From an uncultured Clostridia bacterium (GTDB lineage: Bacteria > Bacillota > Clostridia > Christensenellales > Borkfalkiaceae), in the NCBI GenBank assembly GCA_947630775.1, contig CANRIY010000001.1, forward strand, positions 1 to 43,119: a stretch of DNA of 43,119 nucleotides. The letters are read 5' to 3'. A program made the translations under genes and the position numbers. Below, piece by piece: positions 2,496 to 36,527 of this stretch. Positions within the stretch are counted from its first letter, which is position 1. Each line of letters opens with the position of its first letter. Under the pieces are notes generated by a model. That model ran no database searches and was not told where the DNA came from. It saw only the letters and a list, made by a program, of their open reading frames with translations.

Positions 2496-5400
2496 TTATG
2501 CGAGTTTGAAGTTGGAAACCTGTGCGTAGTCGCTCGAGGAGGCAGATGTGAAGTTATAGTAACCAATATACAGCACATCTCCCGCTTTCACCGTAACCGA
2601 TTTTGTTCCACTTCCGAATAACCGCGCATTGTACGTAGACCAAACAGTCGATGGATTCGAGGGATTCACGCCATAGGCTAAGAAATCCTCAGATGTATCC
2701 GTTATAGAGCACTCAAAGTTAAAGGTGAACGTGCCAGACGCCTTAAAGGTTATTTTCAGTGCCGCTTTGTTCTGGCTGCCCTGTCCTTCGACCTTCCATA
2801 CGCCATTGCCCGCTTCGGTCTCTGTCCAGTTCCCCTTGTTATAGTCAAGGTTCACAGACTCTACCGTATACGGTTCATCCATCCACTTGCAGTAGACGTC
2901 GATGTTCTGCGTGAGCGCGGCAGGGACATACTGCGTCGAATACTCTGCTTCATTGTACCAGCCTTCGAAGATCCAATTCCCGTCGGGAGACGGTTTGTAT
3001 GCCGTGAGATCGGGAACAGCATTCAACGGGAAATACAATGCCGTAGTGCCGTTCGCGTTCGCGCCGTGCTCGCCCCAGTGAATGGTAACCGTGATCTTCT
3101 GCACAGCCTTTGCATAGAGCGTTATCGATGCGGTCGGGATATACTTGCCGTCGACGAGCGTCACAGGAGTCTCGGTGCACGCTTCGTCCACATACCAACC
3201 TGCGATGATCTCGGTCTCATTCGCCGTTGTGGGAAGTTCGACAGAGACATTCTTATAGACGGTCATCGACGCTTGCGTAAGGCTCGTGTTGCTCTCTTTG
3301 ATCGTGAAGCTGATCGTCACCTTCGCCGCGGTGAGGGTCGCAGACTTTGTTTCACTGCCCTTATTGACAGTGAGCTCGTAAGTCTCGGTGCCGTTTTCAA
3401 GATAGACGTCGAAGGTGTAAGCAGAGCCTTCCGCCGGAGCCTCATAGGTGCCCGACTTCTGTGCGCCATTGATATCCGTCTTGATCCCGCCGAAGCCGTC
3501 GAGGGTGATCGTACCGCCTTCAACGGTGTATTCGCCTTCGTAGCCGTCTGCAACGGATTTTTCGAGCCCGCTGTCGCCGCGCTTCCATCCTTCGATGATC
3601 TCCCCTTCGGAATCGCGGATGACGATCGTCTGCGCGTCCTTATAGACATCATTCAAGGCAACCGCATTTCCTTCGGCGTCGGTCGCAACAAACGAAACAT
3701 TGCCCCAAACCCTACCGTCGGAGATGTAGATGATCATCTTCTCATCGCTGTCGAGTGTGACCTCAATGAGTCTTACGGAGCCATTCTCGGCACCCTTCCA
3801 ATAAGAATTGTCACCAAAGGTAACCGTCGCGCTCTTCGCCTTGTTCACCAAGACATACCAATCATTGCCGGTAGGTTGATTCGCGCTCCAAGGTGCAATC
3901 AGGACGCCGTTCTTCGCGTCTGCCGCAAAGTAATATGTTCCCGAATAGCCGCTTTCGAGTGTGAACTTACCGGTAGCGGGATCATAATTCTTAATTGTTC
4001 CGCTTACCCTGGAATAGTCACCGGAAATTTTCCCATAAGCATCGACGTTCAATGTCGTTGAGCTTCCCGCATCCTCATTTCCGCCGCTTGCAGTAGAAGA
4101 ATCATATTCCTTGCCTGCCCATTCGCCGTAGAGCGCGTGGGCGCCCTGCCACTCGCAGTAGAGGGTGATATCTTCGCTCACTTCGGTGCCCGAGGTCCAA
4201 ACGTCACCGTCTGCGGTGCCGAGATGCCATGCCTTGAAGACCTGCCCGTCCGTGAACGGCGGTTCCTTCGGAGTAGCCTCTTCGCCCTCGCCGAGAACAA
4301 GATCGTAGTTCTCAACGCCTTCCTTCTGGTAGTCCACATGCACCGTGACCTTCTTGAGCCACTTCGCGTAGAGGGTGATCCCATCCTCGGTAGGCGTATA
4401 GACATAGTCTCCGTCGCCGTTTGTGCTGAGCTTGCCCGTCGAGCATTCCTCATCGGTGTACCAGCCGCGGAAGACATACTCATCGGTATCATCCAAGGCG
4501 GGGATCACAAACTGCGCATTCTTATTGAAGCTCTGCGTCTCGCCCCAAGTCTGATTTTCGTCGTAGCCAAATCCTTGTGCGCTCGAGAAGGTGACGGAAA
4601 CCATCGGCTGGGTCGCGGAATAATGCTTCGCATCCTTGTCGAGCGTGACGAGATAGAACGCCCCGTCGTAGGTGAGCTCTGCCGTGTATTCTTGGCCGGA
4701 GACGAGAAGATAGGTCCCCTTCTTGCTGTCTGCGCCCGTCACGCCGCCGTGACCGTCAAGGGTGATCGTGCCGAGGTCGATGTCGCCCGAGCCCTTCGTG
4801 TAATCGCCCTCGTAGCCGTCGAGCGAGATCCAATCGCCGCTCTGTTTCGCAAATCCGACAATAAACTCATCCGAGCTATTGTAAATCTTGAATTCGGTCT
4901 TATTGCTCAAATCGGCTGCGTTGATCACCGTGCCGTCGGCAGCCTTGTACGTAACGTTTGCATACAGCGCGTTGTTATAGATCAATACGTTGATATCGTT
5001 GATCGTGAAGACACGGTTCTTATAGCTTTCGGTAAGCCCAAGGTTGTTCGGAACATTGAACACATTTTTCATGAACACGTTGATATCGCTATTGATCACG
5101 AATTCAGCGCTCTCCGTAGAGTTATAGTTGACAACTAAAATTCCGCTCGTCTCATCGAATAAGCCGTAGTAATACTTGCTGCTCGCCACAAAGATCACGC
5201 GTCCCGTAGCTGAATCGTAGCTCTGGAAGGTCGCAGTGAACTGGCCTTTTGTAGCTCCCTTTGTGGTAACCGAAAGCGTTTGGTTGCTCGCACCGGTACC
5301 GTTCGACGAACCGAAAACATTCTTCCCCTGCCATTCGCCATAAAGGATATTGGCTTTGGTCCAATTCACCCAGAGTTCGAGGTTGCCGTCTACGGCAGTG

Positions 5401-8400
5401 CCTTCCGTCCAAAGGTGAGTTTCGGTGCGGTCGGTCGCATCCGTGTACCAACCGTCCCAAATCTTTCCGTTGGTATAGCCGGGTTTTTCGGGATAGCCCG
5501 CTTCGCCCTTGCCATAGGTAAAGGTCTTGTCTTCCAAGTTCTCGCCGTAGTGGACGGTGATCGTCACTTTTTCGAGCCACTTCGCATAGAGAGTGATCGC
5601 CCCGTTGCCCTCAGGAGTGAAGAGGTAGCCATCCTCGTCGGATCTGAGCGGGTCACCCCGGAAGTCCGCCGTCGTGTACCAGCCGCGGAAGACATGGGTA
5701 TCGGTATCTTTGAGTGCGGGGATATGGACTTCAATATTCTTATTGTAATCGCCGTTTGCCAAGGTCTGACCATCGCCATAGGCAAGCCCCTGTTCACTCG
5801 TGAAGGTGACGGAGAGCATCGGCTTGGTGATGGTATACGTCTTGGCGGACGTCTTGTCGAGCGTTGCCTCGTAGTATTTACCGTCGAGGTAGATCCCGAC
5901 GACGCCGTCGCTGACGACCACGTAGCTGCCGTCTTTGTCCTCGCCAAACTTCGCCGTGGCAACGCCGTTGAGCGTAAGTGTCGTAGGAAGATCGTCTACA
6001 TTGTCGCCCGAGAGGGTATAGGTACCCTCGTTGCCGTCGAGTTCCACCATGGTGGTACCGTTATGGCCGAAGCGTGCAATTTCCTCGCCTTCGCTGTCGA
6101 AAATGTAAAGTTTCGACGCCTGATAAGCCGTATCGGCATTGACATCCGCTGCGGAATCGTCCAACCCATCCTTGAAGCTCACATTGAAGTACACCTTATT
6201 ATTGTGAACGAAGATGTTATAGGTCTGCCCGTCTTCCGGTGTATAGCTGATGACGCGCGACATGCCTTCATTCCAATAAGAACTACGAATATGGGATGCA
6301 ATAAAGCCGCCTTCTTTCTCCATGTAGGAAAGGAGATACACTTCATCGAATTTCTCGGCAGCTTCCTGTCCATTATAGTCGCTCGTCGAATTCATGATGA
6401 TGAGCTTGGAAATGGGATCGATATACGCATAATAGGTCGACGAAAATGATCCATCAGTCACAAACTTTAGTTTATAGCTACCTTCGTCTACCCATTCAAT
6501 CTTCAGGTTGCCTCTGAAAGGAGAAATGCTACTCGCGACGCCATTGCCGTCGGGATCAATGTCAACTTTATGGCTGTCATCAGTACTGGTCGATGTGAAA
6601 TGTCCGCCGTTTGCATTGGTCCCTCCAATTTCATAGGCATAATAGTAATGGCTGTAAATCGGCGCTTCGCCCCACTTCGGATAGAGATGGAGCTCTGTGA
6701 TGTCGGTGCCGAGTGTCACGGTCGTCAAACCGTCTTCACCCAACTCGCCCCAAGCGTGCTCATGCAATTCGTCGGTATACCAACCTTCGAACTTGCCGCC
6801 ATCTTTGACAGGACGGGCAAGCGTGACTTCTTCGCCCTGACCGTAGGCAGTGATCGTACCGTCTTCGCCGAGCGTGCCCTCGGGAAGGGTCTCGCCGTCG
6901 CCGAGATGGACATGGATGGTGACCTTCTTCACCCACTTTGCGTAGAGGGTGGCGGCTCCCGTAGGTTTGTAGACATAGTGGCCGTTGCCGTCTTTATTGA
7001 GCTCGGACCCGAATGCCTCATCGGAATACCAGCCGCGGAAGAGGTAGACACCGCTCGGATCGGTAAGGTCGGGAAGGACGGTCTCAATGTTCTTGTTGTA
7101 GGAAGTCGTCGCGGGCTTGCCTTCGGGATCCGTCACAAGGCCGTAGTTGAAGGTAAGATCCACCATGACTTTGGTGCTCTCGTAGGTCGTGCCGCTGAGT
7201 GTGACTTCATAGTAAACGATGGTATCGCCTTCCGCCACATATGCGTCTATCTTGTTGTCTTCGGCGGTCTTCTCATAGGTACCCGTCTTTTCGCCGAGCT
7301 TGAGGTTGCCCACGCCGTCGAGCGTGAGGTCGTCGGCGCCTTCCTTGGTATAGGTGCCGAGGAGTGCGTCAAGGTCGACGGTATCGCTCTTCTTTTCGAA
7401 AGATTCACCCTGAGAGGCGACGCCAAGCAGGACATTCCCCTTGGAATCCTTTACGACGACCGACTTTGAGGCCTTGAGCGAATTGATCGAATCGATCGCG
7501 GAGCCGAATGCATCCGTAACCGTCACATCCGAGCAGATGATCGTTTCATAGAAGAAAACGGTCTTTTTGCCGGTCTTCGTCTCGATCTCAACGAACTGAG
7601 CATAGTAGTTTCTGCTGTCATCGTGCTTGGACGTTGCCTGAACGCCATACTTGTTAGCGATCTTACCGTCCGTCGCCGCGTATTTGCTGAGCACATACAT
7701 GTCGTTGCTCAAATACTGGCGCACTGAGTCACCGTAATTGTACGCAAGAACGCCGCTCGCTTCATCAAAGAAGAAGTAATTGTTCGACCCGCTTGCATCC
7801 GTCCATGTAATGAGTTGCGTTTCTTTGTTGTAATCAACGACGGTACCTTCCTTATCGCCGGAAATCTTGCCGTCTGCGGTGATCGTAATGGTGATGCCGC
7901 CGGAACCGCCTGAACCCGCATTCCAAATTTCGGATCCGTTGAACGTACCAACATAAGGGATCTCCTCCCACACGGAGTGCAGTTCCAAAGCATTGTTGTT
8001 GCCGGACGCATACTTCGTATCGGGATAATCCGCCAAATTCCTTACCGTCTCGCCTTGCTTCATTTGCCAGCCCATGAACATCCGGTCGCCTTGTGCGTCG
8101 GTCGGGAACTTCTTCAGGGATTCGAGGATGTTGTCACCGACGCCGACTTCGAGATCTTCGGACTGTTCGCCGTCGGGATCCGGGAATACCTTGACGGTGA
8201 TCTTCTCGACCCACTTTGCATAGAGAACGGTGTCCCCCGCGGGCTTGAAGGGATCGGATACGGGAGTTTCCAGAGCATCATCCGTATACCAGCCGCGGAA
8301 GAGATATGCACCCGTTTCATCGACAGGCTCGGGAAGTTGCATTTCGACGTTCTTATAGCCCTTCTTCGCATTCTGCGAGCCGTGGCCCTTCATCTCGAAG

Positions 8401-36411: not shown

Positions 36412-36498
36412 GATTACCTCTCTTTGCCGCACCGTTTTTCTCCGAAATCCGGAAAACCGATGAGGAAAGTATAAAATGACACAATTCTACAATATAAC

Positions 36499-36527
36499 AT
36501 TATACCCAAAGCCTCCCCTTTCGTCAA
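36499..36527 (-). promoter_or_regulatory. Near-consensus sigma-A promoter heading the 34-kb minus-strand gene train
   Basis: The minus strand reads TTGACG (36527-36522), a 17-nt spacer, then TATAAT (36504-36499). It sits in the only AT-rich intergenic stretch of the region, about 88 nt upstream of the ATG at 36411. Confidence 0.65.

Follow-up and report, generated by a model that had tools for sequence, protein, structure and literature searches.

The cell-envelope proteinase (CEP) PrtP, the components of the oligopeptide importer Opp and the cooperation of the two are textbook knowledge. Among polysaccharide utilisation loci (PULs), those described in the Gram-positive genera Roseburia and Eubacterium (gpPULs) serve the use of glycans, and a regulator is part of their definition. 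To our knowledge, the gingipain genes of Porphyromonas gingivalis are not part of the rag locus. The RagAB system of this bacterium imports oligopeptides generated by proteases (bioRxiv 10.1101/755678). Lactococcal PrtP ends in H, W and anchor domains (PMC7783315), and the OppA of Mycoplasma hominis, P100, is a lipid-anchored protein of ~100 kDa that is also a surface protein (PMC3179953, PMC2323007). Here we analyse a stretch of 43,119 nucleotides from an uncultured Clostridia bacterium (contig CANRIY010000001.1, positions 1 to 43,119; hereafter the window), in which a subtilase of family S8 is encoded beside an Opp-type importer and several very large lipoproteins. This locus probably encodes a surface system of two modules by which the cell feeds on extracellular protein.

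What is new is the joining of a PrtP-like protease and Opp as one conserved, widespread locus, together with a long OppA family, a small membrane protein, a lipoprotein called g1 and several lipoprotein families without known relatives. Full-text searches of the literature found no description of such a protease-importer-lipoprotein locus.

Gene order, conservation and transcription signals

The list of open reading frames (ORFs) and their translations gives twelve consecutive minus-strand genes, running from position 36,411 down to 2,496. In the sense of transcription their order is g1, oppA, oppB, oppC, oppD, oppF, the gene of the small membrane protein, the protease gene (S8), lp794, lp832, lp1274 and lp2702 (Table 1). 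When the start of each gene is taken as the ATG that precedes the signal peptide (lipoprotein-type ATG), the successive gaps are 77, 56, 19, 3 and 3 nt, then an overlap, then 41, 126, 32, 26 and 103 nt. The ORF coordinates thus confirm the twelve genes and all the gaps listed in the initial annotation of this DNA. A lipobox is found in all seven extracytoplasmic proteins, the protease included.

This gene order is conserved far beyond the window. When an alignment of the long OppA was searched against one genome per species, at least 504 loci with a relative were found; the 80 best were retrieved together with 10 kb on either side and compared by tblastn with the window proteins, and 66 of them had enough flank to be informative. 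S8 adjoins the Opp genes in 63 of these 66 loci. The order of the window, g1-oppABCDF-small-S8 (order A), occurs in 46, and in another 17 the modules are reversed, giving S8-LRR-g1-oppABCDF-small (order B), where LRR stands for leucine-rich repeats. The loci range from 28 to 60% GC and come from metagenome-assembled genomes whose records are labelled Clostridia, Christensenellales and Christensenella, and also Bacilli, Mollicutes and Acholeplasmatales. In these fetched loci the small membrane protein is always encoded 3' of OppF, and a gene for a lipoprotein of 350-590 aa, whose product can be recognised as g1-like in most of them, always precedes oppA.

A search of a metagenome collection with the protease gave the same picture: the Opp genes are adjacent in 57 of the 62 informative loci, and an lp794 homolog lies 3' of S8 in 36 of the 44 order-A loci with enough flank. 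All five contexts obtained with lp794 as the seed (74, 53, 38, 36 and 33% identity) have the order oppD-oppF-small-S8-(optional 183-aa lipoprotein)-lp794-lp832-lp1274-lp2702-like, which is also that of locus L001 from oppD to the lp2702-like gene. The order seen in the window is repeated in these six relatives, at lipoprotein identities as low as 33%. Most related loci come from animal and human gut samples. The first homolog search, made with the N-terminal 1,000 aa of the protease, had a best match of 56% and missed a 92%-identical protein in locus L085; that value therefore understates the closeness of some relatives.

Since the linkage is kept across the different seeds and in two gene orders, the physical and evolutionary wiring of the protease to the importer, first proposed from the window alone, is real and is borne out by the synteny counts. 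The co-occurrence of protease, long OppA and lipoprotein paralogs had been named beforehand as a check, and both sets of loci, as well as the lp794 contexts, agree with it.

Three OppA-seeded loci (L023, L062 and L069) have enough flank and no adjacent S8. Giant lipoproteins of 1,051-2,137 aa stand beside the importer in each of them, and the N-terminus of an ORF 3' of the importer in L062 resembles, by eye, a serine recombinase (resolvase).

The signals around the genes were examined on the minus strand. The promoter upstream of g1, previously described as near-consensus, indeed departs from the consensus at a single position and is the top minus-strand site within 19000-37500. It sits in an intergenic region of 270 nt, where the upstream gene, from a reading of the sequence, closes with its own hairpin and T-run. 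The hairpin after lp2702, which had been put forward as the canonical terminator, stood up as well and is the strongest minus-strand terminator by a wide margin. Internal promoter-like sites do not exceed 9 of 12 positions, and none is above chance. The totals of promoter-like and terminator-like sites are at the level expected by chance, the same as in shuffled sequence, so that it is the position and quality of the promoter and terminator that count and not the number of sites. Short gaps, one good promoter and one strong terminator are compatible with a single long operon, without proving it. A CodY box (AATTTTCWGAAAATT, at most 3 mismatches) has no match across the window, and an Rfam scan for a riboswitch or T-box leader returned no matches.

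Table 1. Features of the locus in the order of transcription; positions are those of the window
Feature	Position	Strand	Description
Promoter, sigma-70-type	36499..36527	-	TTGACG, 17 nt, TATAAT; 11/12 positions; ~88 nt 5' of the g1 start codon
g1, 455-aa lipoprotein	35044..36411	-	InlB-type B-repeats (Pfam Flg_new); C-terminal beta-helix-like 'GNGHTISNF' domain; lipobox LTAC
Long-form OppA, 880-aa lipoprotein	32324..34966	-	SBP_bac_5; solute-binding family 5 (cluster C)
oppB	31263-32267	-	BPD_transp_1 permease
oppC	30044-31243	-	BPD_transp_1 permease
oppD	28883-30040	-	ABC_tran+oligo_HPY ATPase
oppF	27620-28879	-	ABC_tran+oligo_HPY ATPase; low-complexity C-terminal tail
Small tail-anchored membrane protein, ~97 aa	27424..27717	-	Likely ATG 27717; open frame reaches 27912
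S8 cell-envelope proteinase, 2,593 aa	19601..27382	-	Pfam Peptidase_S8 with PA insert, fn3_5, Big_2, 8 LRR_5 stretches
Conserved hairpin, 13 bp, GC-rich	19525..19554	-	Within the 126-nt S8-lp794 gap
lp794	17090..19474	-	All-beta multi-domain surface lipoprotein, new family
lp832	14559..17057	-	Lipoprotein, distant lp794 paralog
lp1274	10708..14532	-	Lipoprotein; N-terminal Big_3-type Ig repeats (Pfam Big_3); C-terminal region without assignment
lp2702, giant repetitive lipoprotein	2496..10604	-	Pfam Flg_new x5; five N-terminal ~83-aa repeats, then five ~420-aa super-repeats
Intrinsic terminator	2436..2469	-	15-bp stem, 4-nt loop, then T-run

Protease, importer and lipoproteins

Judged by its catalytic triad, PA insert, fn3_5 domain and relatives in the PDB, the protease is a genuine enzyme of the CEP type. 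Its domains follow one another in the order lipobox, presumed pro-region, S8 domain with PA insert, fn3_5, Big_2, eight BspA-type LRR_5 stretches, helical segment, proline-rich spacer and C-terminal transmembrane anchor. The triad is intact and in the subtilase order, with D242 (VLDSG), H321 (HGTHV) and S686 (GTSMA), within a Peptidase_S8 match of E 2.8e-40; PA lies at residues 550-625, between the histidine and the serine, and fn3_5 at 785-901. Compared with solved structures, the first 1,000 aa come nearest to C5a peptidase, SpyCEP and cell-envelope proteinase (E 1e-57 to 1e-51, over residues 188-941). In NCBIfam, the SGO_0316 family and the adhesin HupY/LrrG come nearest, both far below the cut-off. 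The C-terminal transmembrane helix is followed by KKKENK, and an LPXTG sorting signal was not found in the protein. Presumably the mature protease is held by this helix, the N-terminal lipid anchor being lost with the propeptide.

In the window and in most other loci, the protease and its LRR half are fused. In L001 (9108-16798), L002 (10001-17470) and L090 (5054-12556) they are called as two genes, with products of ~1,540-1,665 aa and 830-930 aa, and in L002 a single tblastn alignment crosses the junction in one frame. The split could reflect a fission or fusion of genes, a stop codon that is read through, or an error of assembly.

The importer has the composition of an ATP-binding cassette (ABC) importer of the peptide/opine/nickel (Opp/Dpp) type: a solute-binding protein of family 5, two BPD_transp_1 permeases, one of which also has the Pfam domain OppC_N, and two oligo_HPY ATPases, all encoded side by side. 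The products of oppBCDF (27620..32267, minus strand) are 62-87% identical to the proteins of related loci. A search with the single sequence of the long OppA gave no direct match in the PDB; with a profile of 25 sequences, the peptide binders OppA, AppA and DppA rank first. The AlphaFold2 model of OppA (confidence score, pLDDT, 82.9) has as its top Foldseek neighbours AppA with a nonapeptide, NikZ and lactococcal OppA, at TM-scores normalised by target length of 0.72-0.77. In the model, residues ~158-350 (~200 aa) make up an additional domain, mostly helical, which none of these structural neighbours has. Among NCBIfam families the best match is Opp4A, far below the cut-off. The long OppA family comprises at least 3,542 clusters, all of ~865-913 aa, and the few that bear a name from their source are called 'hypothetical protein'. 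By sequence and by modelled fold, the long OppA appears closest to peptide binders, and a peptide is the most likely reading of its ligand. An OppA with ecto-ATPase activity, of the Mycoplasma type, was also considered and was rejected because the Walker A motif is absent from this protein.

Two further proteins accompany the importer. In an alignment of the g1 family, 28 of 34 members carry Flg_new, and the matches to M26_N and Pectate_lyase_5 are weak; the PDB matches of g1 are the B-repeats of internalin B. The small membrane protein had been described as a transmembrane ORF of 162 aa, which has to be shortened to ~97 aa or less, the conserved part beginning at YVDDGHT. It has a K-rich N-terminus, an 11-letter motif, a KERRAAIRAA motif and a C-terminal transmembrane helix ending in FWL. 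These motifs are common among its 72 homologs of 57-101 aa, each of which is encoded directly 3' of oppF in either arrangement of the modules; no Pfam or NCBIfam family matches the protein. With a start at 27717, its gene overlaps the low-complexity tail of oppF by 98 nt in a different frame. This OppF tail of ~100 aa, in which G, T, D, A and E abound, overlaps the K/Q/P-rich N-terminal part of the small-protein frame (27620-27912); an alignment of this frame with L085 covers 175 aa and shows 70% identity.

As far as sequence comparison goes, the four lipoproteins downstream of the protease belong to families without Pfam, NCBIfam or PDB relatives beyond Ig-like (immunoglobulin-like) and B-repeat domains. 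lp794 has 46 full-length homologs and no match in Pfam or NCBIfam. Its AlphaFold2 model (pLDDT 85.1) gave only weak Foldseek matches of low TM-score, to Ig arrays, LprG, TbpB, Bacteroides SGBP-B and adhesins, with no enzyme fold; the likeness to LprG, TbpB and SGBP-B offers hints, not assignments. lp832 has no significant Pfam match, no NCBIfam match and no sequence relative in the PDB; its orthologs lie 3' of lp794 in L001 and in L085-L089. lp1274, with internal repeats at residues 25-340 and orthologs in L085-L089, has no NCBIfam match and no PDB relatives. When lp794, lp832 and lp1274 were used in sequence-profile searches of the PDB, an Ig-like segment was the sole match. Each super-repeat of lp2702 bears Flg_new B-repeats.

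The initial annotation counted ~8,200 aa of domain-sharing lipoproteins in the locus. That sum is reached only when the protease is included, the four downstream lipoproteins making up 5,602 aa. As to the sharing of domains, lp794 and lp832 are 23% identical over ~390 aa (E 8e-9), a relationship seen only without composition correction, and default blastp finds none among the lipoproteins. They are only marginally related to each other: beyond this pair, what they have in common is limited to generic Ig or B-repeat modules.

The gap between S8 and lp794 contains a hairpin with a predicted folding energy of -43.5 kcal/mol (z -4.4). Compensatory changes preserve it in L086, a distant relative, and it is nearly identical in L085. 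Read in the sense direction, it has a U-run before it and an A-run after it, with no U-tail. Because the run that follows is of A instead of U, the hairpin is not a canonical terminator; possible roles for it are in processing or stability, or as a partial stop. In many relatives, including one with a stand-alone protease, a lipoprotein of ~183 aa is encoded directly 3' of the protease (L001, 16811-17362; L088, 9439-9987; L089, 9427-9987; L003, 13885-14436; L162, 17368-17919). This gene was looked for in the window and left no trace there; the conserved hairpin occupies its position.

Comparison with L085, a close relative, reveals a gradient of divergence along the locus. Identity is 99% for OppD, 93% for OppF, 92% for the catalytic region of S8, 85% for its LRR region, 75-78% for lp794, lp832 and lp1274, and 57% for lp2702, the fastest-evolving gene of the locus. 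The ratio of nonsynonymous to synonymous divergence (dN/dS) is 0.19-0.41, indicating purifying selection on all the genes tested (oppF, S8 and the four lipoprotein genes), with lp2702 at 0.41. Synonymous divergence itself climbs steadily, from 0.21 in oppF to 0.75 in lp2702. The gradient fits exposed surface proteins that diversify or recombine rapidly on a conserved core, and the rise in synonymous divergence is a hint that the distal lipoprotein genes have undergone recombination or allele replacement, as opposed to uniform vertical descent.

The flanks of the locus contain other genes and repeats. Between the terminator and the next gene, at 2080-2398, a palindromic, GC-rich element of 61 nt occurs three times; two of its copies are identical and one is 62% identical, and each contains two hairpins. 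Together with a further 21-nt inverted repeat at 1949-2066, they look like intergenic repeats of the repetitive extragenic palindromic (REP) type. Positions 1-1824 carry, on the minus strand, another lipoprotein gene (MKKRVAIFACALSALFTMQLLSGC...), which runs off the left end; its product exceeds 608 aa and has no Pfam match. The promoter of this gene (1876-1904) is perfect at 12 of 12 positions with an extended -10 TG, and the long plus-strand ORFs listed over the gene are antisense artefacts. On the upstream side (36685-43119), the neighbours are unrelated ion-transport genes: the last 4 nt of a P-type cation ATPase gene (37353-39998) are shared with the gene of a 223-aa membrane protein that has no Pfam match, and a Na+/H+ exchanger and an MgtC-family protein are encoded on the other strand.

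A candidate system for feeding on protein

What can be seen directly in this locus is its gene content, the intact motifs of protease and transporter, the signals for lipid or transmembrane anchoring, purifying selection on the tested genes and a very strong, conserved linkage of the modules. We infer the nature of the substrate (protein, then peptides), the physical coupling of the modules, their co-transcription and the role of the lipoproteins in capture. In the scheme we propose, the surface lipoproteins lp794, lp832, lp1274 and lp2702, together with the LRR array, would hold protein substrates, or particles or cells that carry them. The membrane-held CEP, of the PrtP/C5a-peptidase type, would then cleave the captured protein; the long OppA would take the released oligopeptides and pass them to OppBCDF. 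g1 and the tail-anchored protein of ~80 aa would serve as accessories of the importer, either linking it to the protease complex or regulating it. The folds recognised among the lipoproteins are all of a binding type, and protein capture at the surface is their most likely function.

Several observations weigh against this scheme. Among the window proteins scanned there is no regulator, PrtM-like maturase or peptidase, and a rotamase or PrsA-like domain is absent from all of them. The fold neighbours of OppA also include binders of nickel and chelates, with NikZ, NikA and EppA scoring similarly to the peptide binders. The conserved hairpin after S8 could uncouple the two halves of the locus. 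Five loci retain S8-183aa-lp794-lp832 away from Opp, two relatives of S8 stand alone with no Opp nearby, and in order-B loci the large lipoproteins are encoded 3' of the importer and show, by tblastn, no homology to those of the window. In view of these Opp-free S8-lipoprotein loci, lone S8 genes and order-B lipoproteins, the unit is best described, as far as gene content tells, as a pair of modules that lie side by side in almost every case: the importer on one side, the protease and surface lipoproteins on the other. Finally, C5a peptidase and SpyCEP, the closest solved relatives of the protease, are specific immune-evasion enzymes and not nutritional ones.

This last point leads to an alternative in which the locus is an island for interaction with a host or partner: the LRR-bearing S8 would cut specific host or microbial surface proteins, the lipoproteins would be adhesins or an antigenically variable coat, and Opp would salvage the products or be unrelated. 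Immune mediators are the substrates of C5a peptidase and SpyCEP, the LRR part of the protease resembles the adhesin HupY/LrrG, and g1 and lp2702 carry internalin-type B-repeats. The steep rise in divergence, synonymous divergence included, toward the distal lipoproteins is as in surface-antigen loci, and the gut origin of most related loci is in keeping with a host. We nevertheless regard this alternative as unlikely, for it gives no account of a family-specific long-OppA importer and its accessories adjacent in more than 90% of loci despite the reordering of modules, and apart from generic folds of the Ig, LRR and B-repeat kinds, no domain for a host ligand can be recognised in the lipoproteins. 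The persistence of S8-(183-aa lipoprotein)-lp794-lp832 even without an adjacent Opp agrees with another idea, that S8 matures, trims or sheds the giant lipoproteins encoded with it while Opp recycles the peptides; enzyme and possible substrates would all be membrane-anchored. However, a specialised importer family would be superfluous for recycling, no cell-envelope proteinase is known to require such partners, and the lipoproteins vary among lineages whereas the protease is conserved, which makes such a role in coat maintenance quite improbable.

Opp systems in other Bacillota import signalling peptides of the RRNPP type, and the protease might accordingly process a secreted pro-peptide that Opp delivers to an intracellular receptor. 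Neither the window nor the related loci contain a gene for a receptor, regulator or pro-peptide, and an anchored CEP of 2,593 aa with adhesin domains would be disproportionate to the task; we give this possibility very little credence. That functionally unlinked genes came together by chance is effectively refuted by their linkage across at least 60 species-level genomes of 28-60% GC and in two module orders. Feeding on extracellular protein thus stays the explanation that we favour. It is plausible, and we offer it tentatively, that the window holds the type example of Gram-positive 'protein utilisation loci', a class not described before and widespread in at least ~500 species-level genomes, mostly of uncultured gut Bacillota, in which the lipoproteins of the new families, g1 included, capture protein at the surface, the helical OppA insertion docks on the protease complex, the ~80-aa subunit completes the importer, and the whole forms the main route of these lineages to dietary or host protein.

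Nitrogen acquisition by many uncultured gut Bacillota is largely obscure, and protein fermentation in the gut affects health. The locus provides a concrete protease-plus-importer unit that can be tracked in metagenomes and metatranscriptomes. It also brings to light a very large OppA family, nearly all of whose clusters are nameless, besides lipoprotein families and a small membrane protein that have no known relatives, and it extends the idea of the 'utilisation locus' from the glycans of Bacteroidota to proteins in Gram-positive bacteria.

Comparison with known systems

The initial annotation likened the locus to the PULs of Bacteroidota. The likeness holds as an analogy: those loci and the RagAB-gingipain route of P. 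gingivalis have in common with this one the logic of capture, degradation and import, and surface lipoproteins encoded beside a transporter. Unlike them, the locus lacks the defining SusC/SusD (RagA/RagB) pair, there is no outer membrane, and import is by an ABC system; domains of SusC-like TonB-dependent transporters or of SusD are absent from all twelve proteins according to Pfam, so that the resemblance is functional only. The gpPULs are similar in pairing, on one strand, a surface-anchored degradative enzyme with an ABC importer, but here a protease takes the place of the glycan enzyme and neither the locus nor its flanks contain a regulator. We therefore do not class the locus as a PUL or a gpPUL, whose defining features are absent here. 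P100 of M. hominis is, by its description, also an unusually large lipid-anchored OppA; it is an ecto-ATPase with Walker motifs (PMC3179953), whereas the OppA described here has no Walker A.

C5a peptidase (ScpA/ScpB) and SpyCEP, which among solved structures come closest to the catalytic, PA and Fn3 region, differ from the protease in being LPXTG-anchored virulence enzymes of narrow specificity, unlinked to an importer or to accessory lipoproteins. The nearest functional parallel would be the PrtP/PrtM and Opp pathway of lactococci and lactobacilli. In both cases an anchored S8 enzyme with a PA insert and Fn3-type domains yields oligopeptides, which a family-5 solute-binding protein and OppBCDF import, these activities being predicted for the present locus. 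The helical segment, proline-rich spacer and anchor of the protease parallel the H, W and anchor domains of PrtP (PMC7783315). The protease described here differs from PrtP in being anchored by a lipobox and a transmembrane helix in place of LPXTG, in having a BspA-type LRR array where PrtP has its B domain, and in having no PrtM maturase encoded nearby; OppA differs from its lactococcal counterpart in its length of 880 aa and its helical insertion. Above all, in contrast to the lactococcal pathway, protease and importer form one conserved locus here, to which six further conserved components are added: g1, the small membrane protein and the four lipoprotein families.

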